Origin: a virus
Reading direction: 5' to 3' (one strand)
UHGV virus genome: UHGV-0055450
DNA length: 34,955 nt
Shown in pieces: positions 2,168 to 34,049 of the stretch (position 1 is the stretch's first letter; the number at the start of each line of letters is the position of its first letter). The notes beneath the pieces are model-generated. The model saw only the letters and a list, made by a program, of their open reading frames with translations. It was not told where the DNA came from and did not search any database. Both the position numbers and the translations under genes were made by a program.

Positions 2168-2826
2168 GCAGCACGCTCCCGCCCCTGGTTGTCTGTTGGT
2201 GACAGCGGAGCATTGCTGAATGCATTTGTTAATCCGCCAATATCCAACGCGTATCCAGGGTGTAGTTGCACTGCCGGGTCTTCGCACTGATTACCCCAAA
2301 CATCGAAGCCATGAGACGTCTGGCGGGCGAACAGTTCAATGCGAGAAACATCGCCTAATAATTGCACAAGTTTTTCACGAACGACATCTGGTTTTCTTGA
2401 ATGCTCAAGCCGCGGTGCGGTAAATGACTGAACGATACCTGCATTAATGCGCGGAGGTAGTTTTCCCTTTACCGCAAACAGGCAATCTTCACTATTGGCG
2501 CGAGTCATGTGTCCCATACCCATAACCAGTTTATCTGGTTGTCGACTACCACATTTTATCCACGTGAAGCCCTTCATGGTCATCAGACGGAATCCCCAGG
2601 CTTCAACAACTTTTAGTGCTTCGAGTGGTTGTGTTGGCACCCACCACATGGCCAACAGACAGTTTTCACCGGCCAAATCCCACACAGGAAGGCGGCAGAT
2701 ATCCAGCACACTCATAACCGGATATTTAAAACCGGCACCGCGATTACCATCTGTGGCTTTGTCCCGGTATGCCCAGGGTGGATCTGCATAGATTAGTGTG
2801 TATTTCTTAGTCATAAACCACCCCAC
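2164..2826 (-). CDS. DNA N6-adenine methyltransferase, MT-A70-like (orphan)
   Basis: DPPW catalytic motif in LIYADPPWAY near the N-terminus; no restriction endonuclease gene adjacent. The likelier start is the ATG at 2814 (MTKKYTLIYADPPW). Confidence 0.8.
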   Translation of the reverse strand: MGWFMTKKYTLIYADPPWAYRDKATDGNRGAGFKYPVMSVLDICRLPVWDLAGENCLLAMWWVPTQPLEALKVVEAWGFRLMTMKGFTWIKCGSRQPDKLVMGMGHMTRANSEDCLFAVKGKLPPRINAGIVQSFTAPRLEHSRKPDVVREKLVQLLGDVSRIELFARQTSHGFDVWGNQCEDPAVQLHPGYALDIGGLTNAFSNAPLSPTDNQGRERAA

Positions 2827-3106
2827 AACATCCTATGCCGCTATAGTCGCCACGGCGAAGTCCGTTACCTTTTGTGATACATTGGTCCCTGCGAATCGCG
2901 ATCCTTGCACGTTCAACATCACCAGAAGCAACATCCATACACTGAAGCCAAAGGTGGGCGGCAATGCGGAACTGCCCTTTTTTCTCTCTTTCAATCGCGC
3001 GTTTTTCGATCTCTATCGCCGCAGGAGTAACGGCGACAATCTTTGACGGACTGCGCATTGAAACCTTATTCATGTGATATTTTTCAAGTCGGCTTAACTT
3101 TCTCAC
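2807..3106 (-). CDS. Hypothetical protein (99 aa)
   Basis: ORF in the leftward operon between the AlpA-like gene and the methyltransferase; GTG start preceded by GAGGG; no recognisable motif. Confidence 0.4.
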   Translation of the reverse strand: MRKLSRLEKYHMNKVSMRSPSKIVAVTPAAIEIEKRAIEREKKGQFRIAAHLWLQCMDVASGDVERARIAIRRDQCITKGNGLRRGDYSGIGCCGVVYD

Positions 3107-5877: not shown

Positions 5878-6462
5878 TTATTGTTTGTTTTTTTCGTTCT
5901 GGTTGATGACAAATTCAATGTAACTTTCGATCTTTGCTTTCTCGGTTTCGGGTAACAATGCGTAGCGCGAGCGGTCATAGTTGATGGTCGCAGGGTCGTG
6001 CGGGTGAATCAGTAATTCATAGCCGTGACGCCCGAATGCGGATGCAACATTCTCCAGGGTGGAAATGGAAACGCTGACCTCATTGTTTAACAGGCGGCTG
6101 ATTGTCACCTGGGCGACGCCGGATGCGCGGTGAAGTTTTCCCTGTGTTGAAAGGTCGCGGCTTTCGCTCATCCAGCGTTCCAGGTTGTGAGCCGCCAGCT
6201 GACCAATGTCGCTTGGGCCGACAGGCTGAAAACCTTCCTGAGAAAGCGAGCGATCGATATCAAGCCAGTTACGGGGTTTATTGGCGGCAGCTTCAATTTT
6301 TCGCGCAACCTGGTCGCCGATAACCTTCTTGCCAAGAGCCCAGCGGTTTACCAGATTTGCCTGAGTTCCAAGTTTTTCTGCCATCCGCGTCTGAACACCA
6401 TTGAATTCACGGTCGATCAAGTCGTTGAGATTTTGCCTGCGGACGTCCTGGATACTTTTCAT
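5878..6462 (-). CDS. CI-like prophage repressor with two helix-turn-helix regions and no recognisable LexA-type autopeptidase domain
   Basis: 194 aa; HTH-like segments QTRMAEKLGTQANLVNRWALGKK and ASGVAQVTISRLLNNEVSVSISTLENVASAFG; no Ser/Lys peptidase motif seen; divergent from the cro-like gene across an operator-rich spacer. Confidence 0.75.
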   Translation of the reverse strand: MKSIQDVRRQNLNDLIDREFNGVQTRMAEKLGTQANLVNRWALGKKVIGDQVARKIEAAANKPRNWLDIDRSLSQEGFQPVGPSDIGQLAAHNLERWMSESRDLSTQGKLHRASGVAQVTISRLLNNEVSVSISTLENVASAFGRHGYELLIHPHDPATINYDRSRYALLPETEKAKIESYIEFVINQNEKNKQ

Positions 6463-7213: not shown

Positions 7214-8029
7214 ATGAGCAGACATGCAACAGATTGGGCCTGGGAGACAGATCCAGGTAGCTCGTCATTAAAGCTCATACTGCTCTCGATGGCTGACAGA
7301 GCCGATGAATATAACCTCTGCTACCCCAGCATAGAACGCCTCGTTAAAGACACTTGCCTGAATAAAAAAACCGTGCAGGCCGGGCTTATATCGCTCATGA
7401 AAATGGGGCTTATTTCAGATACCGGAGAGAGAAAGGGAGCGACGAAAAGAGTGCGGGTTTTCTCTCTTAATATAACCAAAAACGGGAACATTAAAGGCAA
7501 CCGGGAAGGGGGTAATGAACCCGAAAACGGTAATGTTACCGAAAACGGGAATATACCCAAAAACGGGATGTTGAATGATCCCAAAAACGGGATGTTGAAT
7601 GATCCCAAAAACGGGATCCAGAACCAGTCATATAACCAGTCATTTAACCAAGAGAGGGAGAGCAGGACAAAAACCGGGGATTCTGTGCCTCATGACCCCG
7701 GCGCAAACAACGCCGTGATGAATAACTTTGTTCCTCCTGGTGGGCCAGGGAAATTAGGCAAATTTGTCATGCATGAACAATGGCAGCCATCAGATGACTT
7801 TCTTCGGAAAAGCTCATTGCAGGGGATCTACCTGGACAGTCTGCCAACGGCACAGGAACTTGCAGAGTTCAGAATTTACTGGATGGCTGAGGGTAAGGCA
7901 TACCATCAGGCACAGTGGGAGCAGAAGCTGGCAAGGCGGCTGCAGATTAGCAGACAGAAGCAATCAACATTACCTGATAACAACGTTCCGCACTGGAACA
8001 GCCCTGAAGCGTGGGAGGATTTCTTGTGA
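7214..8029 (+). CDS. Replication initiator, lambda O-like
   Basis: N-terminal HTH-type initiator region (LKLILLSMADRADEYNLCYPSIERLVKDTCLNKKTVQAGL); a central Asn-rich repeat peptide encoded by the iterons; sits immediately upstream of the P-like gene. Confidence 0.7.
   Translation: MSRHATDWAWETDPGSSSLKLILLSMADRADEYNLCYPSIERLVKDTCLNKKTVQAGLISLMKMGLISDTGERKGATKRVRVFSLNITKNGNIKGNREGGNEPENGNVTENGNIPKNGMLNDPKNGMLNDPKNGIQNQSYNQSFNQERESRTKTGDSVPHDPGANNAVMNNFVPPGGPGKLGKFVMHEQWQPSDDFLRKSSLQGIYLDSLPTAQELAEFRIYWMAEGKAYHQAQWEQKLARRLQISRQKQSTLPDNNVPHWNSPEAWEDFL
7476..7620. repeat. Iteron array (putative replication origin) inside the O-like gene
   Basis: At least six direct copies of CCAAAAACGGGA / CCGAAAACGGTA with 18-24 bp spacing, including tandem 21-bp units CCCAAAAACGGGATGTTGAATGAT; three GATC sites. 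Confidence 0.65.
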
Positions 8030-8811
8030 ACAACGTTTTTACCGCGATACAAAACCGTGACGGAGAAGCCCTTTCTCGCATGTCAGGTTATGAGCATCAG
8101 TACGTCAACAATGACAATGTGGTGAACATGTCAGCAGAGAGGCTTGTTGATGCCCTTTTCAAACAGCTGAAACAGCTGTTTCCGGCGGCAGTGGTAACCA
8201 ACCTGAAGACGCCAGAGCAGGAAGTTGCTGCAAAACAGCAGTGGATTGCTGCGTTTGCCGAAGGTGGGATCCGAACCCGTGAACAGGTTTCTGCTGGTAT
8301 GCGCCACGCCCGCGCCAGTGAATCTCCGTTCTGGCCGTCGCCAGGGCAATTTATCAAGTGGTGTAAAGACAGCAAGATGGTTCTTGGCGTCACCATTGAC
8401 GATGTGATGGCGGAGTTTCACCGGTACAGCAAGGAAAAAAGTTTATATCCTGGTGGTCCCGAAAGATTCCCGTGGCGACATCCGGTTATGTACTGGGTCG
8501 TATGTGATACCCGCCGTGCAATGTATCAGCGCCAGCTTAGCGAGATTGAGGTTGAGAAACACGCGCGCAGGCTGCTCGATGATTGGGCGAAAAAGGTGGC
8601 TTCCGGACAGCAGATACCCGATCCGGTGATCAGCATACAGGCAAAGCCAGAGCCCATGAGTACACCTCCGGACACAGGGAGAGACGTTTACCATCCACCA
8701 GGGCGAAGTTTCGGGTGCATGCCTAACGCCGCCACCCTTGGGGGAATAACACCGGCGCAGTGGCTGATGGAGGAATACAGGCGGGGAAAGGCGGCAGGAT
8801 TTATCAAGTAA
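8026..8811 (+). CDS. Replication protein P-like (helicase loader)
   Basis: Segment LFPAAVVTNLKTPEQEVAAKQQWIAAFAEGGIRTREQVSAGMRHARASESPFWPSPGQFIKWCKDS aligns with lambda P (FPASLANRDQNEVNEIRRQWVLAFRENGITTMEQVNAGMRVARRQNRPFLPSPGQFVAWCREE). The GTG at 8026 overlaps the O stop. Confidence 0.8.
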   Translation: MNNVFTAIQNRDGEALSRMSGYEHQYVNNDNVVNMSAERLVDALFKQLKQLFPAAVVTNLKTPEQEVAAKQQWIAAFAEGGIRTREQVSAGMRHARASESPFWPSPGQFIKWCKDSKMVLGVTIDDVMAEFHRYSKEKSLYPGGPERFPWRHPVMYWVVCDTRRAMYQRQLSEIEVEKHARRLLDDWAKKVASGQQIPDPVISIQAKPEPMSTPPDTGRDVYHPPGRSFGCMPNAATLGGITPAQWLMEEYRRGKAAGFIK

Positions 8812-8848
8812 TACCAGCGCGATAGCGCATTTTTTTACGCCTCAATAA

Positions 8849-8925
8849 TTACCTATAAGGTAACAAAATATTCTAAACTCTATTGATTTCGTGTCTTATG
8901 TGGTTTTTAATTACCTTAGAGGTAA
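8849..8925. promoter_or_regulatory. Two operator palindromes between the P-like and DUF1064 genes
   Basis: Perfect TTACCtataaGGTAA (8849-8863) and TTACCttagaGGTAA (8911-8925); the second ends 3 nt before the DUF1064 start codon. Confidence 0.5.
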
Positions 8926-8928
8926 ATC

Positions 8929-9276
8929 ATGAGAAAACAGATACAGGCTCTTGGTCGACTCAAAACAGGCCAGATGAACAAAACAGAATCTGCGTATTGC
9001 CAGCACCTTGAGCAGCGTAAACGTGCAGGGGAAATCGCCTGGTATCGATTCGAGGGTATCAAGCTGCGGTTAGCTGACAACACGTTCTATACGCCCGATT
9101 TCGCTGTGATGCTCGCCACCGGAGAGATGGAACTGCACGAAGTGAAAGGGGGATTCTGGACCGACGACGCCAGGGTGAAAACCAAAGTAGCCGCAGATCA
9201 GTATCCGTTCCGAATCATCGGGGTAACGGTTAAACCAAAGAAAGCAGGTGGCGGCTGGAACATCGAAGAGTTCTGA
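8929..9276 (+). CDS. DUF1064-type phage protein (possible nuclease fold)
   Basis: 115 aa; ESAYCQHLEQRKRAGEIAWYRFEGIKLRL...YTPDFAV...HEVKGG resembles the DUF1064 family common next to phage replication genes. Confidence 0.55.
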   Translation: MRKQIQALGRLKTGQMNKTESAYCQHLEQRKRAGEIAWYRFEGIKLRLADNTFYTPDFAVMLATGEMELHEVKGGFWTDDARVKTKVAADQYPFRIIGVTVKPKKAGGGWNIEEF

Positions 9277-9337
9277 ATCGACGATCTTTTTAGTTATCAA
9301 TGTAATCAATAAGTTATGTGGATAAGCGAGGGTAAAG

Positions 9338-9916
9338 ATGGAAAGTAATATCAAAGGGTTAGTTGCCGCCGGGCATGAGATGGCTTCGGAACTGAAAGCA
9401 GAATGTGGTGCCGTTGATATGCGCAGTGTGGCAAAGCTGATCAGCGATTTGGCAACGCAACTGGAAGTGCAACTGGTGCGTGCTAATGCGCTGTCCGAAG
9501 ACCACCAGAAAGCGATTGAGTCAATTAAGCAGGCTGATGCGGCTGTTAAGTTGGCACACGAGAAGTTTTCGGCGCTGGCGGCGGAGAATGCGGCAATGCA
9601 TGAAACTATTGAAGCCGTTCGCAGTGTTGCGGATAACTCCAGTGGAATTGCCGGATGGCATTTGAATGGCGATATCGCCACATGGGAAGAGATTCTTCCT
9701 GAAATTAACGATATCGAAACGCCAGCTACCGACGCTTTCCTGGCGGAAGTGCGGGCCAGCGAACTTGATAGCCTGGCTGGCATGGCTGAAACAATGTTGG
9801 TCAAGTTCTCCAATCAGCAGTGTTCATCTGATATGCATGGCGTTGTTGGTTGGAAGATGGTTCTCCAGCAGGCCAGCAATCGCGCCGACCAACTTCGCAA
9901 AGGAGGCAGCCAGTGA
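9338..9916 (+). CDS. Hypothetical protein (192 aa), possibly Ea22-like
   Basis: Alanine-rich coiled-coil-like ORF; ATG preceded by GAGGG; weak resemblance to the following Ea22-like protein. Confidence 0.5.
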   Translation: MESNIKGLVAAGHEMASELKAECGAVDMRSVAKLISDLATQLEVQLVRANALSEDHQKAIESIKQADAAVKLAHEKFSALAAENAAMHETIEAVRSVADNSSGIAGWHLNGDIATWEEILPEINDIETPATDAFLAEVRASELDSLAGMAETMLVKFSNQQCSSDMHGVVGWKMVLQQASNRADQLRKGGSQ

Positions 9917-10557
9917 ATAACCGCTTTTACATGATGTGCTTGCGTGAAACTGTGGGTAATAACGCTTCATTCCATTGCCATAACGGCAATGGTTACAGTT
10001 CTAATATCGATCGCGCTCATGTTTACACGCTGGAAGAAGCCCAAAAAGCCTGGAATTGTGGTCGAGATATCGATCAGCCTGTTTGCGCTGATAGCGTGGA
10101 TGCAATGGCTGTGTGGCACGTTGATTGCCAGTACATCCCTACAGAAAACCTGATTGAGCCAGATTGCACTGCGTATGTGGCCTACAAAAAAGGTAGCTGG
10201 AACGGCAACGATGTTTACTGGCTTCAACACGGTGGATTGCCAACAGATGACTTCAGTAAAGCGACCATCTTTAGCGTCGCCAACAAAAACGAACCAGGAA
10301 TAGTTTGGTTGCCATTTTCCATTGCTGATGCAGCAAAGCGCCGGACGTTCAATATCAATAACTTTAACCGCAGAACAATGGTTCAGGGCGCAGGTTTGGT
10401 CATGCCTGACTGGTTGAAAAAGCAGAACAGAAGAAAGAAGTCGCGAAGCGGGAAGATGCGTTGGAATTGTCCGCATTGCGGAAAAATTACCTGGCAGTAC
10501 AGCCCATATGATTTTGAAGGATGTCGTGATTACAACTGTGAAGGATGGCGAGTATGA
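9914..10557 (+). CDS. Hypothetical protein with C-terminal zinc-ribbon-like motif
   Basis: GTG start overlapping the upstream stop; C-terminus NCPHCGKITWQYSPYDFEGCRDYNCEGW (C-x2-C ... C-x4-C). The track ORF starts at 9850. Confidence 0.5.
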
Positions 10558-12746: not shown

Positions 12747-12795
12747 CATGTCACGAGTAGATTATGCATGATGAATTTGATGTGTTTTGAATACT

Positions 12796-12821
12796 GCCGC
12801 CAACTATGGCGGCTTTATTTT
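12796..12821 (+). terminator. Rho-independent terminator
   Basis: GCCGCC-(AACTAT)-GGCGGC followed by TTTATTTT. Confidence 0.65.
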
Positions 12822-12832
12822 GCATGGTACTA

Positions 12833-12847
12833 TTACCACAACGGTAA
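12833..12847. promoter_or_regulatory. Operator palindrome upstream of the small terminase gene
   Basis: Perfect TTACCacaacGGTAA; a second partial copy TTACCacggtGGTtA (12851-12865) abuts the start codon. Confidence 0.5.
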
Positions 12848-12864
12848 CTATTACCACGGTGGTT

Positions 12865-13461
12865 ATGATGCTTGCTGAACCTAAAACCTATAAACGCAAA
12901 TCAACGCAATTTAAGCCACTAACAGCAATGCAGGAGGCTTATTGCCAGTCATACATCAAAACGCCTGAAAACCAGACTCAGGCAGCGATTAACGCAGGAT
13001 TCTCCCCAAATACAGCGGCAGTTAAAGCCAGTGTCATGATGCGCGATGAACGCATTCAGAAACGGATTGCCGAGTTGATGGAGGAGCGCAACAAACGAAT
13101 GCGCGTCAGTGCTGATTACGTTCTCATGCGCCTGGTGGAGATCGACCAGATGGACGTGATCGACATCCTCAACGACGATGGGAGCCTTAAACCAATCCGT
13201 GAGTGGCCGAAAATCTGGCGCACTACGCTTAGTGGCTTTGATCTGTCATCGACCATCATGAACATGAACGAGGATTCGATAGAGACAATCCTCAAAAAAA
13301 TTAAATGGCCTGACAAGGTGAAGAACCTTGAGCTGATTGGTAAGCATGTTGATGTCAACGCGTTCAAAGAACGTCTGGATGTTAATGTGAATGTGACAAT
13401 TGCTGATCGCATAGCAGCAGCCAGGAAGCGACTCAAAGAACGTCAGGATGGTAATCAGTGA
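12865..13461 (+). CDS. Terminase small subunit
   Basis: LTAMQEAYCQSYIKTPENQTQAAINAGFSPNTAAVKASVMMRDERIQKRI fits small-terminase HTH families; directly upstream of and overlapping the large terminase. The track ORF start at 12787 would include the terminator and operator, so the ATG at 12865 is preferred. Confidence 0.65.
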   Translation: MMLAEPKTYKRKSTQFKPLTAMQEAYCQSYIKTPENQTQAAINAGFSPNTAAVKASVMMRDERIQKRIAELMEERNKRMRVSADYVLMRLVEIDQMDVIDILNDDGSLKPIREWPKIWRTTLSGFDLSSTIMNMNEDSIETILKKIKWPDKVKNLELIGKHVDVNAFKERLDVNVNVTIADRIAAARKRLKERQDGNQ

Positions 13462-14933
13462 CAGATACAGCATTATCTCCTGAAGAGCAGTTGATCGAGG
13501 ATATTGCAGGGTTCACTCACGATCCGCTTGGCTATGCCCTCTATGCGTTCCCGTGGGGGGAAGAGGGGACTGAACTGGCACATGCCACCGGCCCACGTCA
13601 GTGGCAGGCAGATGCGTTCCGAGAGATACGTGATCACCTGCAGAATCCAGAGACGCGCTATCAGCCGCTTATGCTGGCGCGTGCTTCGGGTCACGGTATT
13701 GGTAAATCCGCATTCATCTCAATGCTGATCAACTGGGGCATGTCCACTTGCGAGGATTGTAAGGTCGTGGTGACCGCCAACACCGACAACCAGCTACGAA
13801 CGAAGACCTGGCCGGAAATTATCAAGTGGTCGAACCTTGCTATCACGAAAGACTGGTTTACCTGTACCGCTACCGCGATGTACAGCAATGACCCTGGGCA
13901 CGACAAGCGGTGGCGAGCTGACGCAATCCCCTGGTCTGAGCACAACACTGAGGCATTCGCCGGACTACACAACGAGCGCAAACGCATCATCGTGGTATTC
14001 GATGAAGCGTCGAACATTGCGGATCTGGTGTGGGAAGTTGCCGAGGGTGCGCTAACGGACGAAGACACTGAGATTATCTGGGTGGCGTTCGGAAACCCGA
14101 CGCGTAATACCGGACGTTTCCGCGAATGTTTCCGCAAATATAAACACCGCTGGAAAACTGCGCAGATTGACAGCCGGACGGTGGAAGGCACCAACAAACA
14201 GCAGTTGCAGAAATGGGTTGATGACTACGGGGAAGACAGCGACTTCGTTAAAATCCGTGTGCGCGGCATATTCCCGGATGCATCTGAATTGCAGTTTATC
14301 CCTACCGGACTTACTGACGAGGCAATGAAACGGGTGGTCACCGCTGCGCAGGTTGCACATGCTCCGGTGATAATCGGCGTTGACCCGGCATACTCAGGCG
14401 TTGATGACGCTGTGATATACCTGCGGCAGGGGCTGCACAGTAAGGTGCTGTGGACTGGCAACAAGACCACTGACGATCTGATTATGGCGAAGCGTATCGC
14501 TGACTTTGAAGACCAGTACCAGGCTGACGCAGTGTTCATCGACTTCGGTTACGGAACTGGTCTGAAGTCAATCGGTGACGGCTGGGGTCGTACATGGCAA
14601 CTTGTTCCGTTCGGTGGCGCGTCTACTGACCCGCAGATGCTCAACAAGCGTGGGGAGATGTTCAACTCATGTAAGACATGGCTGAGGCTGGGCGGCATGC
14701 TGGATGACCAGGAAACTGCAGACGACCTGTCGGCGGCAGAGTACAAAGTTCGAGTGGACGGTAAAATCGTTATCGAACCGAAGGAAGATATCAAAGAGCG
14801 ACTTGGGCGTTCGCCGGGTAAAGGCGATGCGCTGCTGCTGACGTTTGCTTTCCCGGTGTCGAAGCGCCTGCGACTTCCCTGGCAGCAGAACCAGCAAGGC
14901 AAGGCCATCACAGATTATGACCCGTATGCTTAA
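13458..14933 (+). CDS. Terminase large subunit
   Basis: Walker A GHGIGKS, Walker B IIVVFDEAS, nuclease-domain motif GVDPAYSGVDD; 491 aa; GTG start overlaps the small-subunit stop. Confidence 0.9.
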   Translation: MTDTALSPEEQLIEDIAGFTHDPLGYALYAFPWGEEGTELAHATGPRQWQADAFREIRDHLQNPETRYQPLMLARASGHGIGKSAFISMLINWGMSTCEDCKVVVTANTDNQLRTKTWPEIIKWSNLAITKDWFTCTATAMYSNDPGHDKRWRADAIPWSEHNTEAFAGLHNERKRIIVVFDEASNIADLVWEVAEGALTDEDTEIIWVAFGNPTRNTGRFRECFRKYKHRWKTAQIDSRTVEGTNKQQLQKWVDDYGEDSDFVKIRVRGIFPDASELQFIPTGLTDEAMKRVVTAAQVAHAPVIIGVDPAYSGVDDAVIYLRQGLHSKVLWTGNKTTDDLIMAKRIADFEDQYQADAVFIDFGYGTGLKSIGDGWGRTWQLVPFGGASTDPQMLNKRGEMFNSCKTWLRLGGMLDDQETADDLSAAEYKVRVDGKIVIEPKEDIKERLGRSPGKGDALLLTFAFPVSKRLRLPWQQNQQGKAITDYDPYA

Positions 14934-14984
14934 TCCGCTGGTGGGGATAATGTCGTTGATATCCTCTGATGAGGATAAAACAAA

Positions 14985-15010
14985 GCCAGCTCATCGGCTG
15001 GCTGTTTGTG
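14985..15010 (+). terminator. Terminator hairpin between convergent genes (large terminase and Gp49-like)
   Basis: GCCAGC-(TCATCG)-GCTGGC followed by TGTTTGTG, with an A-rich stretch upstream, so possibly bidirectional. Confidence 0.5.
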
Positions 15011-15023
15011 ACATGTCAATGTG

Positions 15024-15260
15024 TTATTGCTCGCTTAACTTCTGCTTCAGCAAGTAACCTTCAAGCATCCAGATTTTGTTTACAGCATTCTGCCGGGCAA
15101 TCTTCCGACCAATTTCTGCATCAAAATTTTCCGGACTTGCACAGGCACTCTCTCCGGTGACAGTGAAGCCATTCTTCAGCACCAGTACGCAGAATGTCAG
15201 CAGCTCCAGCTCGTCAGGCTGGTCTGGGATTTTTACGCTGTATGTTTCGCTTCTCTGCAC
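15024..15260 (-). CDS. Gp49-like phage protein (N4 gp49 / Sf6 gene 66 type), N-terminal region interrupted
   Basis: LLTFCVLVLKNGFTVTGESACASPENFDAEIGRKIARQNAVNKIW resembles this family from memory. The frame stays open upstream to 15380, but an in-frame TAA at 15381-15383 separates it from a well-placed ATG at 15395. Confidence 0.5.
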   Translation of the reverse strand: MQRSETYSVKIPDQPDELELLTFCVLVLKNGFTVTGESACASPENFDAEIGRKIARQNAVNKIWMLEGYLLKQKLSEQ

Positions 15261-15405
15261 ATGAGCAAAGCGAGCACCATCAGCGGCCGTAAAGTAATGT
15301 TCGCTGGCGATTATGCTGGCAATGTGTTCAGGAGTAACGCGAGCCGCCGTCTTACCCTTGGCTGCGATTTCTTTTTCGATTTACTGGTCGTTCATAATCT
15401 CACCT

Positions 15406-15430
15406 TAAAAAAATGCCCGGCGAACCGGGC
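15406..15430 (-). terminator. Rho-independent terminator downstream of the tRNA
   Basis: Minus strand reads GCCCGG-TTCG-CCGGGC followed by TTTTTTT. Confidence 0.6.
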
Positions 15431-15593
15431 GAACTGGAAGCAATGAGTTATGCCTTCCGTGGCTGTACTGGTTTACAGCATGAAGTCATCGCAATGGCGT
15501 CCTGCTGTAAAAAGGGCGGTGATAGTCCTTCAAGGGAAACCATCACCGCCAAGCCCCTGGAACTTCTGGCATCACGGTCCTTAGGCGTGATTC

Positions 15594-15670
15594 TGGCGTG
15601 GCATGCAGGATTCGAACCTGCGACCAACCGCTTAGAAGGCGGTTGCTCTGTCCAACTGAGCTAATGCCAC
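15594..15670 (-). tRNA. tRNA-Arg (anticodon UCU), phage-borne variant
   Basis: Reverse complement GTGGCAT-TA-GCTC-AGTTGGACA-GAGC-A-ACCGC-CTTCTAA-GCGGT-TGGTC-GCAGG-TTCGAAT-CCTGC-ATGCCAC-G-CCA folds as a cloverleaf with a 7-bp acceptor stem, TCT anticodon and encoded CCA. Body resembles argU; stems differ. Confidence 0.85.
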
Positions 15671-15992
15671 AACGCTGAGAGCACTTAGCCTGTTAAGGCG
15701 CCACACTTTGTCGCGGCTCCATAAATGCTCTCATCGTTGTACCCTCGTCTCTTCCGAGGCGTCACACCGAATCGCCGGGATGGTGAATCCCCGTGCGCGG
15801 AATAAAACCGCTCGACTTGCACATTCCGGCTACCTGGTTCGTTTGCCCGAGCAAGGGAGGGTGCCCCTTAAACGTATCCAGACCGCTATCGGCGCATGTG
15901 CCATACGCCGTACTGCTCAAAATAAAAGCTCACTCCACCTGTTCAATTTAACGACAAGCCAGTCAGGTTAGTAACCGGAATGAACTCTTTGG

Positions 15993-16007
15993 TTACCTGA
16001 AAGGTAA
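15993..16007. promoter_or_regulatory. Operator palindrome upstream of the virion gene cluster
   Basis: Perfect TTACCtgaaaGGTAAtaattt; the right half overlaps a TAATAA -10-like hexamer. Confidence 0.5.
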
Positions 16008-16097
16008 TAATTTGTGCGTTAAATGTCAACTATCTACGATAAATAAATCATATGTGGTTAAATTGGTAATAATTTAATTGCGTACGGAGTCATTGAT

Positions 16098-16304
16098 ATG
16101 TGCATGGGTAGCTCACCATCAGTGCCTGCAACACCAGAAGTTCAGGCAGCACCACAGGAGCAGGATGCCGCCGTTGTTGATGCCCGCGACGAAGAAACTC
16201 GTCGCCGTCGCGCTGCTGCTGGTCGTAGTTCTACGCTGCTTACCGGTTCTCAGGGTGACACATCAACCGCTAATACCAGCGGTAAAACGCTGCTTGGTCA
16301 GTAA
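16098..16304 (+). CDS. Hypothetical small protein (68 aa)
   Basis: ATG with GGAG upstream; low-complexity Ala/Arg-rich sequence; just upstream of the portal gene. Confidence 0.35.
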   Translation: MCMGSSPSVPATPEVQAAPQEQDAAVVDARDEETRRRRAAAGRSSTLLTGSQGDTSTANTSGKTLLGQ

Positions 16305-16318
16305 CCGGAGTCATTGAA

Positions 16319-17998
16319 ATGGCGGAAACAACTAAAGAGCGATTGAACAAACAGTTCGCACAACTTGAAAGCGAGCGTCAGTCGTTCGAGCCGCACTGGC
16401 GCGAGTTGAGTGATTACATCAACCCGCGTGGTTCCCGCTTTCTGACTTCTGAGGTCAACCGTAACGATCGACGCAATACACGCATTATTGATTCGACCGG
16501 GACTATGGCGGCGCGCACTCTCGCCAGCGGCATGATGTCAGGCATCACAAGCCCCGCGCGTCCGTGGTTTCGCCTGGCTACGCCAGATCCTGAAATGATG
16601 GATTATGGCCCTGTTAAGTTGTGGCTTGAGGCGGTGCAGAACCGCATGAACGATATGTTCAATAAGTCGAATCTCTACCAGTCTCTTCCGCAGTTATACG
16701 GAAGCCTCGGCACATACAGCACTGGTGCAATGGCGGTGCTGGAGGATGACGAGGACATCATTCGCACAATGCCATTCCCGATAGGCAGTTACTACCTGGC
16801 TAACTCACCTCGTGGCAGTGTGGACACCTGTTTTCGCAAGTTCTCTATGACTGTTCGTCAGCTTGTTCAGGAGTTCGGGCTAAATAACGTCAGCGAATCC
16901 GTAAAAAGCATGTGGGAAAGCGGCACCTACGAGAAGTGGATTGACGTGATGCATTCGGTTTACCCGAACATTGACCGCGATACATCGAAGCTGGATAGCA
17001 AGAACAAGCCATTCAAATCGGTTTATTACGAGGTTGGTGGCGATAACGACAAGTTGTTGCGTGAGTCCGGATTTGATGAGTTTCCAATTATGGCTCCGCG
17101 CTGGGAAGTTAATGGCGAAGATGTTTATGGATCATCATGCCCGGGTATGCTGGCGCTTGGACCTGTTAAGGCATTGCAGCTTCTCCAGAAGCGCAAGTCG
17201 CAGTTGATTGATAAAGCCACCAATCCGCCGATGGTTGCTCCGACTTCCCTCAAGAATCAGCGCGCCTCCCTTCTTCCTGGCGACATCACGTATATCGATC
17301 AGATTACTGGTCAGGATGGTTTCAGGCCTGCTTATCTGGTTAACCCCAGTACAGCAGATCTGGTAGCAGACATTCAGGACACTCGTCAAATCATTAACAG
17401 CGCCTACTTTGTCGATCTGTTCATGATGTTGCAGAACATCAATACCCGCTCGATGCCTGTTGAAGCGGTGATCGAAATGAAAGAAGAAAAACTTCTGATG
17501 TTGGGGCCGGTTCTGGAGCGTCTGAACGACGAATGTCTTAACCCTCTCATTGACCGCGCTTTCTCGATGATGGTGCGTAAAAACATGCTGCCGCCACCGC
17601 CTGACGCGATGGAAGGTATGCCCCTGAAGGTCGAATACATTTCCGTCATGGCTCAGGCGCAGAAGTCTATCGGCCTGTCCAGTCTGGCGTCCACGGTTAA
17701 CTTCATTGGTCAACTTGCGCAAGCGAAACCAGAAGCTCTCGACAAACTCAACGTTGATCAGGCGATCGATGCATTCGCTGATATGTCCGGAGTGTCTCCA
17801 ACCGTCATTGTTCCGCAGGAACAGGTTGAGCAGGCTCGCCAGCAACGGGCACAGCAACAACAGCAGCAACAAATGATGGCGATGGGGATGGCGGCGGCAC
17901 AGGGTGCCAAGACGCTAAGCGAAGCTAAAACTTCGGATCCGAGTGTTTTGTCAGCTATGGCGAATGCAGTTAGTGGTCAGGGTGGGCAATCACAATGA
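16319..17998 (+). CDS. Portal (head-to-tail connector) protein, T7 gp8-like
   Basis: 559 aa; follows the terminase genes and precedes scaffold and capsid; N-terminal MAETTKERLNKQFAQLESERQSFEPHWRELSDYINPRGSRF fits the podovirus connector family; C-terminal poly-Gln tract. Confidence 0.8.
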   Translation: MAETTKERLNKQFAQLESERQSFEPHWRELSDYINPRGSRFLTSEVNRNDRRNTRIIDSTGTMAARTLASGMMSGITSPARPWFRLATPDPEMMDYGPVKLWLEAVQNRMNDMFNKSNLYQSLPQLYGSLGTYSTGAMAVLEDDEDIIRTMPFPIGSYYLANSPRGSVDTCFRKFSMTVRQLVQEFGLNNVSESVKSMWESGTYEKWIDVMHSVYPNIDRDTSKLDSKNKPFKSVYYEVGGDNDKLLRESGFDEFPIMAPRWEVNGEDVYGSSCPGMLALGPVKALQLLQKRKSQLIDKATNPPMVAPTSLKNQRASLLPGDITYIDQITGQDGFRPAYLVNPSTADLVADIQDTRQIINSAYFVDLFMMLQNINTRSMPVEAVIEMKEEKLLMLGPVLERLNDECLNPLIDRAFSMMVRKNMLPPPPDAMEGMPLKVEYISVMAQAQKSIGLSSLASTVNFIGQLAQAKPEALDKLNVDQAIDAFADMSGVSPTVIVPQEQVEQARQQRAQQQQQQQMMAMGMAAAQGAKTLSEAKTSDPSVLSAMANAVSGQGGQSQ

Positions 17999-18997: not shown

Positions 18998-19990
18998 ATG
19001 ACAATGGCTGTTAAAGGCTTAACTGCGCTAACGCTGGCTGACTGGGGTAAGCGCGTCGATCCAAACGGGAAAGTCGATAAGATTATCGAGCTTCTCAGTC
19101 AAACTAACCCGATCCTTCAGGATATGCCTTTTGTCGAAGGGAACCTTCCTACCGGACACCGAACCACCATTCGTTCTGGTTTACCTTCAGCTACCTGGCG
19201 TTTGCTGAACTATGGCGTACAGCCAAGCAAATCAACCACAGTGCAGGTAACCGATTCCGTGGGCATGCTGGAAACCTATGCTGAAGTCGATAAGTCACTG
19301 GCTGATCTGAACGGCAATACCGCCGAATTCCGCCTGTCTGAAGACCGCGCATTTATTGAAGCGATGAATCAGCAGATGGCGCAGACGCTGTTTTATGGTG
19401 ATTCCAGCGTTAACCCTCAGCAGTTTATGGGACTGTCCTCCCGCTATTCCAGCCTGTCTGCGGGTAATGCTCAGAACATCATTGATGCTGGTGGCACGGG
19501 TACAGATAACACCTCAATCTGGTTAGTGGTGTGGGGCGAAAACACCGTGCATGGCATCTTCCCGAAAGGGCAGAAGGCTGGCATCCAGATGGAAGATAAA
19601 GGCCAGGTGACACTGGAAGATGCTAATGGCGGCAAGTACGAAGGCTATCGCACCCATTATAAATGGGATAACGGACTTGCTCTGCGTGACTGGCGTTATG
19701 TTGTTCGCATTGCAAACATCGATGTCAGCAATCTTTCAGAACCTTCCTCTGCCGCAAATATTGCGAAGTTGATGGTTAAAGCACTGCATCGCATTCCAAA
19801 CCGTGGCATGGGCCGCCCGGTGTTCTACATGAACCGCACTGTAGGCCAGGCTCTTGATCTGCAATCTCTGGAGAAAACATCTCTGGCTATCAGCGTAAAA
19901 GAGACTGAAGGCGAGTGGTGGACTTCATTCCGTGGTGTACCAATCCGTGAAACTGATGCGCTTCTGGAAACAGAAGCCCGCGTGGTGTAA
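18998..19990 (+). CDS. Major capsid protein
   Basis: About 330 aa, directly after the scaffold gene and followed by a hairpin; assigned by size and synteny. The ATG at 19004 has better spacing from the AGAGGA box. Confidence 0.65.
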   Translation: MTMAVKGLTALTLADWGKRVDPNGKVDKIIELLSQTNPILQDMPFVEGNLPTGHRTTIRSGLPSATWRLLNYGVQPSKSTTVQVTDSVGMLETYAEVDKSLADLNGNTAEFRLSEDRAFIEAMNQQMAQTLFYGDSSVNPQQFMGLSSRYSSLSAGNAQNIIDAGGTGTDNTSIWLVVWGENTVHGIFPKGQKAGIQMEDKGQVTLEDANGGKYEGYRTHYKWDNGLALRDWRYVVRIANIDVSNLSEPSSAANIAKLMVKALHRIPNRGMGRPVFYMNRTVGQALDLQSLEKTSLAISVKETEGEWWTSFRGVPIRETDALLETEARVV

Positions 19991-20875: not shown

Positions 20876-21199
20876 ATGGAACTCGTAAACCTCAAAACCG
20901 GCACTGACAGCTACCAGGATGAGAGCGGAGAAACCAGAACTCGCGATGAATACCCGTGGGGGCTGTGCATCACGCTGAATAACGACACATTGAATAAGCT
21001 GAAGGCGCAACCTCAGGGCGTCGGAACAGAAGTGATGATAACTGCAAAGGCTGTTATTCGAGGCCTGTCTGCCAGAGAAACTGACGATGGTGTTAATCGC
21101 AGCGCCGATCTGCAGATCACTGATATGGCGATCGCTCCTGTTTCCGGGGATGTAGAAAAATCAGCGGCTGAAACTCTGTACGGTAACGGAGGTGAGTGA
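20876..21199 (+). CDS. Hypothetical virion-module protein (107 aa)
   Basis: ATG at 20876 with GCAGGAG upstream; the C-terminus KSAAETLYG repeats the scaffold C-terminal motif RSAAEVLYG. Confidence 0.45.
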   Translation: MELVNLKTGTDSYQDESGETRTRDEYPWGLCITLNNDTLNKLKAQPQGVGTEVMITAKAVIRGLSARETDDGVNRSADLQITDMAIAPVSGDVEKSAAETLYGNGGE

Positions 21200-21804
21200 T
21201 GGCCTCTGTAGTAGAGATCTGTAATCGTGCGCTGTCCAATATTGGCAACAGCCGCAGCATTAACAGCCTGACGGAAGCCAGCAAGGAAGCGGGGGAATGT
21301 TCGCTGCACTTTGAGGCCTGCCGTGATGCTGTGCTTTCTGATTTTGACTGGAACTTTGCTACCAAACGCGTGGCGCTTGCAGATACGAGCAATCCACCGC
21401 CTGACTGGGAATATGCGTACCAGTACCCGTCAGATTGTCTGCGCATTACTGAAATTATGCTTCCTGGTGTACGCAATCCAACAGCAGCAATGCGCGTTCA
21501 GTACGAAGTTGGTGCAGACACCAACGGAACAGGAAAGTTGATCTACACAGACCAGCCTCAGGCATGGCTCAAGTATGTCTCTCGCGTTACAGATGTGAAC
21601 ATGTTTGATGCCATTTTTATGGAGGCGTTGGCCTGGCGTCTTGCGGCAGCTATTAACATGGCGCTGACTGGGAATGCAGACCTCGGTACGTTTGCCCTCA
21701 ATATGTACAATCGCGTGATTCTTAGTGCTGGCTCGCATAGCCAGAATGAATCACAGGAACCACAGCCACCGGTTGACGAGTTTACCATTGCGAGGTTGTC
21801 CTGA
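21199..21804 (+). CDS. Tail tubular protein A-like (T7 gp11-like adaptor)
   Basis: About 200 aa; N-terminal ICNRALSNIGNSRSINSL...DWNFAT resembles T7 gp11 (VNDILASIGEPPVSTL...GWTFNI); positioned before the large tubular protein. Confidence 0.55.
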   Translation: MASVVEICNRALSNIGNSRSINSLTEASKEAGECSLHFEACRDAVLSDFDWNFATKRVALADTSNPPPDWEYAYQYPSDCLRITEIMLPGVRNPTAAMRVQYEVGADTNGTGKLIYTDQPQAWLKYVSRVTDVNMFDAIFMEALAWRLAAAINMALTGNADLGTFALNMYNRVILSAGSHSQNESQEPQPPVDEFTIARLS

Positions 21805-24269
21805 TGGCTATCAGTTGGATCCAGCCCAGCTTTGCCGGTGGTGAGATTGGACCGTCTTTGTACGGTCGTATCGACATGGCGAAGTACCAGGTGGCATTGC
21901 GCAAGTGCGATAACTTTATCGTGCGGCAGTATGGCGGCGTTGAGAATCGACCTGGTACGCGTTTTGTCGGTGCCGCCAAATACCCAAATCGGAAATGCCG
22001 CCTGATCCCGTTCCAGTTCTCGACGGTTCAGACTTATGCTCTGGAGTTCGGACACCAGTACATGCGCGTTATCAAAGATGGTGCGTTGGTGCTGAACAGC
22101 AGCAATGTTATTTATGAAATTGCCACGCCATATACTGAAGCCGATCTGTTCCGAATTAAATTCACGCAAAGCGCAGACGTGCTTACGCTGGTTCATCCGG
22201 CATACCCGCCGAAAGAGTTGCGCCGCTATGCGCATGACAACTGGCAACTGGTTGATGTGGTAACGAAGAACGGGCCATTTGAAGATATCAATATTGACGA
22301 GTCAGTGACGGTTTATGCCAGCGCCAGCACCGGGACAATTACGTTAACGGCAAGCGCCTCAATTTTTGGCGCGGAGCAGGTAGGCAAATTGTTCTATCTG
22401 GAACAGCCTGCAGTGGATTCTGTGCCGGTATGGGAAACCAGTAAGAGTACGTCGATTGGCGATATTCGCCGTGCAGACAGTAACTACTATCGCGCCGTTA
22501 CAGCAGGAAAAACAGGTACTTTGCGCCCTTCGCATACAGAAGGCACATCATGGGATGGCTGGGGCGGATCCGGTGATGATGATACTGGCATTGAGTGGGA
22601 ATATCTGCACAGTGGTTTTGGCATTGCCCGTATCACTGCTGCAAATGGAACTACTGCAACTGCCGAGGTGATTTCCTATATCCCTTCGCAGGTCGTTGGC
22701 GAGGATAATGCCAGCTATAAATGGGCTAAATATGCCTGGAACAGTGTTAATGGTTATCCTGGCACTGTTGTTTATTATCAACAACGTCTTTACTTCGCCG
22801 CATCGACTGCGTTTCCTCAGACTATCTGGGCCAGCCGTACCGGGGATTATAAGGATTTTGGCAAAAGCAATCCTACGCAGGATGACGACAGAATTATCTA
22901 CACCTATGCCGGACGTCAGGTTAATGAGATCCGCCACCTGATTGATGTTGGTTCTCTGGTGGCGCTGACTTCCGGAGGTGAGTACGTCATCACCGGCGAC
23001 CAGAACAAAGTGTTAACCCCATCATCATTTGCATTCAGCTCTCAGGGATCAAATGGCTCAAGCAACGTCCCGCCAATTGCCGTGGCGAATATTGCTCTGT
23101 TCGTCCAGGAGAAAGGCAGCGTTGTCCGTGATCTGGCCTACTCATTCGATGTTGACGGCTATCAGGGGAACGACCTGACCATCCTTGCCAATCATCTTTT
23201 TCAGAAGCACAGCATTGTTGACTGGTGCTTCTCGATTGTCCCTTACTCCAGTGCCTTCTGCATTCGTGATGACGGTAAATTACTGGTGATGACCTATTTG
23301 CGTGATCAGCAGGTTTTTGCATGGGCACCACAATCCAGTACCGGAAAATATGAAAGCACATGCAGTATCAGCGAAGGCAATGAAGATGCGGTGTATTTCG
23401 TCGTTAACCGAACCGTTAACGGGCAAACAGTGAGATACATCGAGCGACTGTCCAGCCGTTTATTTACCAGCGATGAAGATGCTTTCTTTGTTGATTCTGG
23501 CCTTAGCTATGATGGAAGAAATACGTCTGACAGAACGATGATCATCACTGGTGGTTCTGGCGAATGGGATTACCGCGCGGAATATACAATCAGTGTTTCT
23601 GGTGGTGCGTACTTCACCAGTAGTGATGTCGGCGCGCAACTACAGTTCCCTTATACCGGACCTGATACTGGCGATGAGGTGTCAAAAGAATTACGTTGCG
23701 ACATTATTTCTGTAACCAGTAATACCGCTGTAGTGGTTCGTGCTAACAGGAACGTCCCGCCATCCCTCAGGAATGTGGCCACCACGAACTGGCAGATGGC
23801 GCGCCGGACATTTGGAGGCCTGTCTCATCTTGAAGGCCAGACCGTAAACATTCTCTCTGATGCGAACGTGGAACCACAGAAAGTGGTTTCCGGAGGTGCC
23901 GTCACGCTGGAATCTCCGGGGGCTGTAGTGCACATCGGCCTGCCAATAACTGCTGAATTCGAAACACTGGATATCAACATTAACGGACAGGAAACGCTGC
24001 TGGACAAAAAACAGGTGATCCCCTCCGTTACTCTGGTTGTGAATGCCAGTCGCGGCATCTGGGCGACTACGCCCGGCGGTAAATGGTACGAATATCCACA
24101 GCGTGAATTCGAGTTCTACGATGATCCTGTTGATGATGCTACCGGAAAAGTAGAAGTGAAACTGGACAGTAACTGGGGCAAAAACGGGCGTGTAAAAATC
24201 CGTCAGCTTGATCCGTTGCCGCTGTCTGTTCTTGCCGTTATTCCTCGCCTTACTGTTGGGGGATTCTGA
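21804..24269 (+). CDS. Tail tubular protein B-like (T7 gp12-like nozzle)
   Basis: 821 aa; start overlaps the upstream stop (TGATG); size and position match podovirus gp12. Confidence 0.6.
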   Translation: MAISWIQPSFAGGEIGPSLYGRIDMAKYQVALRKCDNFIVRQYGGVENRPGTRFVGAAKYPNRKCRLIPFQFSTVQTYALEFGHQYMRVIKDGALVLNSSNVIYEIATPYTEADLFRIKFTQSADVLTLVHPAYPPKELRRYAHDNWQLVDVVTKNGPFEDINIDESVTVYASASTGTITLTASASIFGAEQVGKLFYLEQPAVDSVPVWETSKSTSIGDIRRADSNYYRAVTAGKTGTLRPSHTEGTSWDGWGGSGDDDTGIEWEYLHSGFGIARITAANGTTATAEVISYIPSQVVGEDNASYKWAKYAWNSVNGYPGTVVYYQQRLYFAASTAFPQTIWASRTGDYKDFGKSNPTQDDDRIIYTYAGRQVNEIRHLIDVGSLVALTSGGEYVITGDQNKVLTPSSFAFSSQGSNGSSNVPPIAVANIALFVQEKGSVVRDLAYSFDVDGYQGNDLTILANHLFQKHSIVDWCFSIVPYSSAFCIRDDGKLLVMTYLRDQQVFAWAPQSSTGKYESTCSISEGNEDAVYFVVNRTVNGQTVRYIERLSSRLFTSDEDAFFVDSGLSYDGRNTSDRTMIITGGSGEWDYRAEYTISVSGGAYFTSSDVGAQLQFPYTGPDTGDEVSKELRCDIISVTSNTAVVVRANRNVPPSLRNVATTNWQMARRTFGGLSHLEGQTVNILSDANVEPQKVVSGGAVTLESPGAVVHIGLPITAEFETLDININGQETLLDKKQVIPSVTLVVNASRGIWATTPGGKWYEYPQREFEFYDDPVDDATGKVEVKLDSNWGKNGRVKIRQLDPLPLSVLAVIPRLTVGGF

Positions 24270-24733
24270 TGATCGATGTTCAAATTATTCCCGCAACCGA
24301 AGAGCATCTTCAGATGATTTTGCCGGATGTTCGTCAGGCTGATATTGACGAACTGTATGCGGTATCGCTGATGACTACCGAAGATGCGCTGCGTGTTGGT
24401 CTGCGCACTGCGACTATGGCCTGGTCAGGGTTCGCGAACGGAGAACTGGTAACCATGTTTGGTGTATCTCCGGCGTCAATGATCGGTGGCAATGGTACGC
24501 CCTGGCTGGTCGGAACCAGCCGTATTGAAAAATATCAGAAGACATTTCTTCGCCACTGCCGACCTGTATTGCAGCAGATGCTGGCAGTTTATCCGCGCCT
24601 GGAAAACTACGTCGACGAGCGAAACCATGTTGCCAAAGCATGGCTGCACTGGCTTGGATTCAGGCTTGAAGAAGCCGCGCCTTATGGTGCTCTTGGTCTT
24701 AATTTCCACAGATTTCACATGGAGAGAAAATAA
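24269..24733 (+). CDS. Internal virion protein, gp13-like position
   Basis: 154 aa, coupled to flanking genes; assigned by synteny. Confidence 0.45.
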   Translation: MIDVQIIPATEEHLQMILPDVRQADIDELYAVSLMTTEDALRVGLRTATMAWSGFANGELVTMFGVSPASMIGGNGTPWLVGTSRIEKYQKTFLRHCRPVLQQMLAVYPRLENYVDERNHVAKAWLHWLGFRLEEAAPYGALGLNFHRFHMERK

Positions 24734-25308
24734 TGTGCGATCCGGTTATTGCTGGTGGCGCAATGCTCGCCATGAGTGGCATTCAGGCATACACCCAGTA
24801 CCAACAGGGAAAGTATGCCTCGAAGGTTGCGGAAGCGAACGCAGATATAGCCACAGCTCAGGCAAATGATGCAATAAACAGAGGTAACGCTGAAGCTGAG
24901 CAACGACGCAGAGAGACCCGACAGCGGCTTGGTACACAGGCGGCGACAATGGGGGCTACCGGCGCTGATTTATCTACAGGTAACGCGCTGGATATATTTG
25001 GCGACACTGCCCAGTTTGGCGCTCTTGATTCGCTGACGACGGTGAATAACGCGCAACGCGAGGCTTACGGTTATCAGGTTCAGGCTGCCAACTATAAAGC
25101 AGAAGCCAGTTCAGCCCGTAAACAGGGGAATGTGGGAGCAGCAACAACATTGCTCACTGCGCCTCTGAAGGCATACGGTGCGTACCAGATGTTTGGTGGG
25201 ACGTGGAGTCCGTTCTCTAAAGGAAGTACATCTAGTGGTGGGACGCCAATGTTATCTAACTCAGGTTTTATGAATTCTGACTCCCGATTCAAAATAGGAG
25301 GTTACTGA
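24733..25308 (+). CDS. Internal virion or ejection protein, gp14-like position
   Basis: 191 aa, Ala/Gly/Gln-rich; start overlaps the upstream stop (TAATG). Confidence 0.45.
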   Translation: MCDPVIAGGAMLAMSGIQAYTQYQQGKYASKVAEANADIATAQANDAINRGNAEAEQRRRETRQRLGTQAATMGATGADLSTGNALDIFGDTAQFGALDSLTTVNNAQREAYGYQVQAANYKAEASSARKQGNVGAATTLLTAPLKAYGAYQMFGGTWSPFSKGSTSSGGTPMLSNSGFMNSDSRFKIGGY

Positions 25309-31444: not shown

Positions 31445-31445
31445 G

Positions 31446-33808: not shown

Positions 33809-33962
33809 GGCGATCACCTTTGTAGTTAGGTTAATCACCACCGCTGAGACCAATCAGATGGTGGTGAACTGTGCAGAGTTGGTCTTACCGGCTACAAAGG
33901 AACCCGGCGCACCTTTCGGTGCCCCCACACAGCCCACCATAGAATAGGTGCGCTTTACACAT

Positions 33963-33981
33963 AAAAAAACCGCTTATGCGG
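33963..33981 (-). terminator. Weak rho-independent terminator upstream of ant
   Basis: Minus strand reads CCGC-ATAA-GCGG followed by seven T; short stem. Confidence 0.4.
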
Positions 33982-33994
33982 CATATGTGCCTCT

Positions 33995-34049
33995 GTAGTA
34001 ATCCGGGAGACCAATCCCGGCACTGGATTTTGCCAGTGCCCGATTACTA
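33995..34049 (-). ncRNA. Candidate structured regulatory RNA or attenuator between the two antirepressor genes
   Basis: Outer stem TAGTAATC / GATTACTA encloses two hairpins, GCACTGG-(CAAAAT)-CCAGTGC and CGGGA-(TTGGTC)-TCCCG, and is followed by the terminator at 33963-33981; no ORF. Confidence 0.25.

Follow-up and report, generated by a model that had tools for sequence, protein, structure and literature searches.

A tRNA-Arg(UCU) gene in the leftward accessory cassette of a Uetakevirus prophage, and the structured leader RNA ahead of it

The DNA analyzed here, a stretch of 34,955 bp called the window throughout, is an integrated Uetakevirus (epsilon15/phiV10-like) prophage. Between its terminase and portal genes, and transcribed against them, it probably holds a functional phage tRNA-Arg(UCU) gene that belongs to a small leftward accessory cassette and has a structured leader ahead of it. 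The leader appears to be undescribed within Rfam 15 and the open-access literature. We lean toward regarding it as an undescribed class of structured phage RNA, a small enterobacterial counterpart of GOLLD and ROOL with a function early in infection (host takeover, anti-defense, tRNA handling, or antitermination).

The window begins in host DNA with an ORF (29-526) that ends at an att core, ATTGAGTGGGAATGATT, located at 512-528. According to PMC9782041, phiV10, epsilon15, and ZX5 have the same core at the guaA 3' end, and its presence at 512-528 therefore places the prophage at guaA. The landmarks of the prophage are as follows.

719-1969, integrase
5878-6462, CI-like repressor
12787-13461, plus strand, terminase small subunit (PHROG)
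13458-14933, plus strand, terminase large subunit (PHROG)
15024-15395, minus strand, interrupted gene of the Gp49/Sf6 gp66 family (PHROG 322, E = 1e-58)
16098-16304, plus strand, small conserved ORF (PHROG search)
16319-17998, plus strand, portal, named "head-tail adaptor" in PHROG
18998-19990, plus strand, major head protein (PHROG)
33116-33853, minus strand, Ant (antirepressor) gene (PHROG)

Upstream of Ant, Rfam models detect a C4 antisense RNA (33857-33944, minus strand, 78.6 bits) and an isrK RNA (33963-34039, minus strand, 74.7 bits). Together, C4, isrK, and Ant give this podovirus prophage an immunity module of the P1 immI type.

The tRNA gene and the elements downstream of it on the same strand are listed here.

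15594-15670, minus strand, tRNA-Arg(UCU), 77 nt with CCA encoded (ARAGORN, Rfam tRNA model, argU alignment)
15506-15550, minus strand, terminator T1, a 14-pair stem (15550-15515) followed by CUUUUU, 43 nt downstream of the tRNA (terminator scan)
15406-15514, minus strand, conserved spacer of ∼85 nt ending in terminator T2 (15430-15415, then U7) (terminator scan)
14984-15003, minus strand, terminator T3, which closes the leftward cassette beside the end of the terminase gene (terminator scan)

ARAGORN finds a single tRNA in the window, a tRNA-Arg with anticodon tct at 15594-15670 on the minus strand, and RF00005, the Rfam tRNA model, gives the same interval 73.3 bits (gathering score, 29; E = 2e-14). 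The 3' CCA is genome encoded (15596-15594), and the flanking packaging and head genes lie on the plus strand. The tRNA agrees with argU of E. coli K-12 at 64 of 77 aligned positions and retains its D stem, anticodon loop, T arm, A20, discriminator, and CCA end. Three acceptor pairs and two anticodon-stem pairs are exchanged, each time on both sides and thus in a compensatory manner; outside the stems there are three changes, in loops or the variable region. The anticodon loop, seven bases reading CUUCUAA with U33, anticodon UCU, and A37, is the same as in K-12 argU. The argO (UCU) and argN (UCG) tRNAs of phage 933W are less similar to the phage tRNA than argU is. By sequence, the phage tRNA is an allele in its own right, different from host argU. 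On all these points the initial annotation reads the locus correctly: it described a cloverleaf with anticodon UCU and an encoded CCA on the strand opposite the packaging genes, with an argU-like body, different acceptor and anticodon stems, and its own downstream terminator, which is the 14-pair hairpin and U tract of T1.

The identity elements of E. coli ArgRS are A20 and C35, plus the discriminator. A20, C35, and G73 of the phage tRNA match argU, and charging with arginine is expected because these elements are intact; the SPN9TCW tRNA-Arg has A73 at the discriminator. A role for the tRNA as an attP or integration-site marker was considered and rejected, the att core lying at 512-528 at the 3' end of guaA. 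With attL in guaA, the tRNA is likewise not an att-site fragment of the host gene, for all that it has in common with argU in the anticodon loop, D stem, T arm, A20, and CCA end. The ileZ-argN-argO cluster of 933W and other Stx phages offers a parallel, as it consists of phage-borne tRNAs for the rarest E. coli codons that have their own terminators, as here; unlike the present gene, it is sited between Q and stx, comprises different alleles, and comes without the leader element.

The terminase-portal gap of 1.45 kb matches phiV10, O157 typing phages 9 and 10, TL-2011b, ZX5, phiv142-3, and others, and more distantly the Salmonella phages SPN1S, SPN9TCW, and SPC32H/N and Klebsiella relatives. 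The relatives repeat the order and strands found here: terL comes first, then, on the other strand, the Gp49-family gene and the tRNA, and after them the small ORF and the portal gene. The tRNA-Arg is already annotated in phiV10, O157 typing phages 9 and 10, phiv142-3, SPN9TCW, SPC32H/N, ZX5, and the Klebsiella relatives, and one tRNA was reported for vB_EcoP_ZX5 (PMC9782041). At least 80% of the cassette is present in 223 complete RefSeq E. coli genomes, in which PGAP labels run Gp49 family protein, tRNA-Arg, portal protein. The tRNA-Arg genes of Uetakevirus phages and E. coli prophages are the same gene on the same strand in the same gap, nearly identical in sequence; only the neighboring Gp49-family gene differs, which in the window is a mosaic allele with a nonsense codon. 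Because the tRNA is conserved and annotated in the same gap of these phages and prophages, its position is not unusual, contrary to the initial annotation, which had it inserted into an otherwise syntenic module. The tRNA-Arg is an ancestral feature of the genus, already known and ordinary. The interval assigned to it at first, 15406-15670, takes in two terminators and the conserved spacer besides the tRNA. That reading included neither the structured leader RNA fused to tRNA-Arg nor the operator-bearing promoter ahead of it.

The Gp49-family gene has an in-frame TAA at codon 5 (15383-15381), where mEpX1 gp63 has CAA, and for this reason it is probably a pseudogene here. Its 5' two-thirds resemble mEpX1, and its 3' third resembles phiV10. 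The U tract of T2 abuts the Shine-Dalgarno sequence of this gene, and the T1-T2 spacer (15431-15514) contains two hairpins. Epsilon15 has kept this spacer, and its T2 stem shows compensatory changes; the spacer could be an sRNA or a regulatory 5' untranslated region. On the plus strand, ORFs at 15413-15664 (83 codons) and 15708-15971 (87 codons) overlie the tRNA and the leader. Such ORFs, which appear as hypothetical proteins in some GenBank records (e.g., PhiV10p04), are almost certainly spurious.

Confident phage genes contain 6.1 AGA and 5.4 AGG, together 11.5, per 1,000 codons, compared to ∼1.1 AGA and 0 to 0.8 AGG (a sum of roughly 1 to 2) in a sample of K-12 core genes. The sum of AGA and AGG per 1,000 codons is uneven among the phage genes.

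Packaging and head genes, 1.6
Genes at 21196-25308, 8.8
Large virion proteins, 25308-32297, 20.2
Early genes, 7214-10557, 24.6

Both codons are thus enriched ∼10-fold in the large virion proteins and some early genes. For some of the genes, these counts lend plausibility to the supplementation of AGA/AGG decoding that the earlier reading had proposed; the packaging and head genes hardly use AGA or AGG, so that codon supply cannot be important to every late gene. A decoding tRNA-Arg would be charged by ArgRS and would read AGA, plus AGG by wobble, since the anticodon loop, D stem, and T arm of argU are kept.

The same comparison with argU bears on a different and rather unlikely role, in which the tRNA mainly serves counter-defense as a nuclease-resistant stand-in for the host tRNA-Arg(UCU) under tRNA-depleting defenses or anticodon nucleases. 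For other isoacceptors, it is established that phage tRNAs can make good the loss of host tRNAs to cleavage. In keeping with such a role, the acceptor and anticodon stems differ from argU where the rest is kept, and the tRNA lies behind an operator-bearing early-type promoter and beside another early RNA. However, argU has the same 7-nt anticodon loop, which is the usual site of attack and of escape, and no defense nuclease specific for tRNA-Arg(UCU) was identified in this analysis.

Upstream of the tRNA and in the same direction lies the leader, the parts of which are given in order of transcription.

15741-15913, minus strand, leader 5' domain (homologs, covariation counts, RNAalifold)
15910-15890, minus strand, hairpin P1, followed by helix P2
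15834-15816, minus strand, invariant 19-mer GGUAGCCGGAAUGUGCAAG of the 5' domain
15791-15777, minus strand, P4 with loop UUCACCA, preceded by a variable hairpin
15785-15782 with 15768-15765, minus strand, pseudoknot of CACC with GGUG
15759-15743, minus strand, P5 with loop GAAGAGA
15670-15740, minus strand, 3' domain P6, a 14-pair closing stem with a variable tip (covariation, homology boundary)

The window has one copy of the leader, ∼245 nt long (15913-15670) in a family whose members measure 170 to 250 nt. G1 of the tRNA takes part in the last pair of P6, and the leader closes with a conserved GUUGUGG that overlaps tRNA positions 1 to 4. The 19-mer, GGTAGCCGGAATGTGCAAG, is invariant in each homolog examined. 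Covariation was counted on a structure drawn by hand, in a sample of 29 members that are <95% identical to one another. Across P1, P2, P4, the pseudoknot, and P5, 96% of the cells are standard pairs, compared to ≤51% in slid controls; compensatory change is seen at 11 pairs (73 cells), and 0 of 500 shuffles reach the observed values. The pseudoknot itself covaries, from CACC/GGUG to AACC/GGUU. P6 is paired in 92.9% of cells, with five pairs changed on both sides. RNAalifold independently recovers P2, P4, and P5 and predicts, in addition, a pairing of the P1 loop region with the 19-mer. This pairing, both sides of which are invariant and show no covariation, could form a second pseudoknot or an alternative fold. 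Several members have stops in all six frames, and the frequent G-U pairs fit the minus strand only. The covarying helices, the one-strand G-U pairs, and the six-frame stops together argue that the leader is an RNA transcribed in the direction of the tRNA.

"Hypothetical protein" calls over the leader in the phiV10, mEp460, and phiSTEC1575 records, and the 87-codon plus-strand ORF in the window, would suit a conserved 245-bp protein-coding gene or DNA site instead of an RNA. We consider this very improbable: the members with stops in every frame, on which a protein-coding leader was rejected, are joined by length differences that are not multiples of three, and the variation in the helices is compensatory, with G-U pairs that fit one strand. 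The structured RNA matches no Rfam family, either at gathering scores or at E values up to 10 (15671-15913), and a search of 14900-16400 at E values up to 10 returned only the tRNA and chance matches. Nor is it described in the open-access papers searched on the Uetakevirus/phiV10 tRNA, P1 ban transcripts, the prophage sRNAs AgvB, AsxR, and Pas, and recent ncRNA discovery, an absence that is weak evidence.

To follow the leader beyond Uetakevirus, we compared it with other phage and bacterial genomes. It is 82 to 83% identical to unannotated DNA in unrelated phages. Homologs occur in mEp460, cdtI, Stx2c and Stx2a phages, Ayreon, 2H10, P1, P7, D6, SJ46, and RCS47, and also in one Stenotrophomonas phage and the lytic Klebsiella phage SopranoGao; no tRNA-Arg follows the leader in these unrelated phages. 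An exact-match scan of IMG/VR for the 19-mer returned at least 120 loci, and GTDB species representatives gave 24 matches to the leader, nearly all in Enterobacterales. Among 5,426 complete E. coli genomes, 1,064 (∼20%) contain the leader, and it is annotated in none. The contexts examined are all phage or prophage.

Among 133 leader loci, tRNA-Arg(UCU) is fused at the 3' end in 29, GUUGUGG supplying tRNA positions 1 to 4, and a tRNA-Ile2(CAU) ends ∼14 nt upstream in 18 (the P1 type). In P1 and P7, the leader is found 14 nt after tRNA-Ile in the C1-controlled ban operon, upstream of ban. A tRNA thus abuts the leader on either side in 47 of the 133 loci, and 86 have none within 600 nt. The P6 tips of several homologs, SPN9TCW among them, form T-arm-like hairpins (GGTTCGAnTCC), and some are aberrant tRNAs by ARAGORN at relaxed thresholds. 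One homolog carries two tandem P6 modules.

This association raises the question of whether the tRNA-Arg is chiefly RNA punctuation, a site for RNase P and 3' trimming that sets the 3' end of the leader, with decoding secondary. The overlap of the conserved leader end with tRNA positions 1 to 4, the start of the P1/P7 leader 14 nt past tRNA-Ile, the abutting tRNA on one side in 47 loci, and the decayed tRNA-like sequences in some P6 tips all point that way. Against it, the 86 loci with no tRNA within 600 nt indicate that the leader needs no tRNA, and the tRNA-Arg is fully canonical, its identity elements intact, in phages of E. coli, Salmonella, and Klebsiella alike. On balance, punctuation seems a doubtful main role.

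A candidate promoter and operator precede the leader.

15993-16029, minus strand, candidate leftward promoter with TTGACA at 16029-16024, a 17-nt spacer, and TACCTT at 16006-16001 (sequence reading)
15993-16007, palindromic operator TTACCTGAAAGGTAA, overlapping the −10 region of the candidate promoter

Both hexamers and the operator are kept in epsilon15 and SPN9TCW. The −10 hexamer is weak, and a promoter scan did not call the candidate at 16029-16001. A k-mer search (14-mers, ≤2 mismatches) found no operators common to the OR region and the leader promoter; the motif TTACC-N5-GGTAA was spotted by eye after that search and then confirmed statistically, with 14 copies in the window compared to 0.46 expected, mostly in regulatory gaps. 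The copies start at these positions.

662, 5744, 5806, 6518, 6566, 6903, 8849, 8911, 12833, 12851, 15993, 33030, 34076, and 34456, TTACC-N5-GGTAA sites

Among these gaps are the repressor/cro region, the sequence past the repressor gene, and that ahead of isrK and C4. The motif has the look of a repressor operator dispersed over the genome, as the P1 C1 operators are. From these sequence features we infer that the candidate promoter is active and that the repressor controls the cassette; the operator at 15993-16007 could equally serve a divergent promoter of the portal operon. On the minus strand, the order is then promoter, ∼320-nt untranslated leader, tRNA, T1, spacer, T2, Gp49-family gene, and T3.

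Leaders in other phages occupy comparable places. In 61 of the 133 loci, an S24-type CI repressor gene on the same strand ends 80 to 140 nt before the leader. Ayreon and Stx2c phages have the cI terminator, next a near-consensus promoter (11/12), and then the leader ∼45 nt past the expected start; this promoter has two copies of an operator that also occurs twice between cI and cro. Because its operators are common to the cI-cro region, the promoter is PL, and the leader is the first element transcribed from it. In the Stenotrophomonas phage BUCT708, a cI-like gene is followed by a promoter, the leader, a strong terminator, and then genes. SfV has an identical PL with its operators and the same downstream yfdP-like genes, without the leader (positions 1190-1810 of the SfV locus were compared with 2420-3030 of the Ayreon locus). 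In the leader's slot, SfV has an unrelated 98-codon ORF, orf33, and a terminator; this replacement behind the same PL marks the leader as a swappable accessory module. We also considered orf33 as an N-like antiterminator and rejected it because it is not arginine-rich, which weakens the simple argument that the leader replaces N.

Epsilon15 lacks the tRNA-Arg and most of the leader, and its sequence jumps from the first part of the element to the 3' half of T1. A 13-nt direct repeat, TTCCCTTGATGCT, is present at both epsilon15 break points in SPN9TCW-type sequence, one copy lying in the loop of leader helix P2 and one in the loop of T1. We interpret the epsilon15 state as a deletion and not as a gain by the other phages. 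Since epsilon15 does without the tRNA and the greater part of the leader, and SfV without the leader, both elements are dispensable accessories.

The position directly past PL, in lambdoid phages without an N gene, is the place of putL and suggests comparison with the put RNAs of HK022. If the leader were a cis-acting processive antiterminator of this kind, it would allow read-through of T1 and T2 here and of the early-left terminators in N-less lambdoids. The leader does sit at about +45 of a repressor-controlled PL in N-less lambdoids, the place of nutL and putL; terminators separate it from the next gene both here and in BUCT708; and there is no room after T2 for a promoter of the Gp49-family gene's own. 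However, nhmmer found no leader match in the HK022 immunity region, and putL and putR, read directly, have no similarity to it in sequence or structure. Moreover, the leader is much larger than putL/putR, is present once per phage with no copy in the PR operon, and lies mid-operon in P1 and in the lytic Klebsiella phage; SfV, where an unrelated ORF stands in its stead, uses the same PL and downstream genes without it. We therefore hold a put-like antiterminator to be unlikely, if a shade less so than the two alternative roles of the tRNA discussed above.

For the cassette of the window, we propose that a sigma-70 promoter, its −10 region overlapped by an operator of the prophage repressor, drives leftward transcription. 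The transcript would be ∼490 nt long and contain the ∼245-nt structured leader, then the tRNA, and then T1. Cutting by RNase P where the tRNA begins would yield mature tRNA and the leader as a discrete RNA, and T1 would set the 3' end. The tRNA-Arg would be made early after derepression, together with the leader, and expression of the Gp49-family gene would need read-through of both T1 and T2. Cotranscription, processing, and promoter activity, like the functions of the two RNAs, are predicted in this model from sequence and conservation.

Our tentative preference, held at somewhat less than even confidence, is that the leader is an early-expressed RNA that acts in trans, with possible roles in host takeover, anti-defense, or tRNA-related processes. 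We favor a trans-acting RNA because the leader is bracketed by promoter and terminator, has processing sites supplied by tRNAs, and contains an invariant segment suited to binding a conserved host partner. It also occurs in a lytic phage and can be swapped, as other early accessory or anti-defense genes can. Whatever probability the trans-acting and put-like readings leave over falls to a riboswitch or some other function. A riboswitch would join a conserved aptamer with an expression platform of alternative structures, placed ahead of the gene it regulates; the leader has a conserved pseudoknotted core, a possible alternative pairing between the invariant P1 loop and 19-mer, and heterogeneous downstream contexts (tRNA, ban, yfdP-like genes, or a terminator).

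Small stable phage RNAs of repressor-controlled early transcripts, freed by RNase P or tRNA-type processing, are known in the C4 RNA of P1 and P7 and the CI RNA of P4. Both are unrelated to the leader in sequence and structure, and a C4 homolog is present elsewhere in the window. GOLLD and ROOL are large, ornate, pseudoknotted RNAs of phages and prophages, found near tRNA islands and of unknown function; GOLLD has one conserved and one variable half, and tRNAs are sometimes located inside the variable region (PMC12286853). The leader is likewise phage-borne and pseudoknotted, adjoins tRNA-Arg or tRNA-Ile (47 of 133 loci), and combines a conserved 5' domain with a variable P6 tip able to hold pseudo-tRNAs. 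In contrast to GOLLD and ROOL, it matches no Rfam model at E values up to 10, falls below the length criterion of >500 nt, is 3 to 4 times smaller, and occurs in Enterobacterales phages, for the most part at an early promoter under repressor control. The leader belongs to neither family, and both are its closest known analogs.

The tRNA-Arg gene itself adds nothing new, being a routinely annotated accessory of epsilon15/phiV10-like phages that fits the standard rare-codon picture. The value of the locus lies in an unnamed, highly conserved, covariation-supported RNA in some of the best-studied phages, namely P1, P7, and Stx-converting and SfV-like lambdoids. Its recognition also corrects the annotation of several GenBank records that set hypothetical ORFs over it. 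If the leader is truly undescribed, it would bring a further participant into early phage gene expression or host takeover and would provide a tractable E. coli model for asking why phages pair ornate noncoding RNAs with tRNAs.
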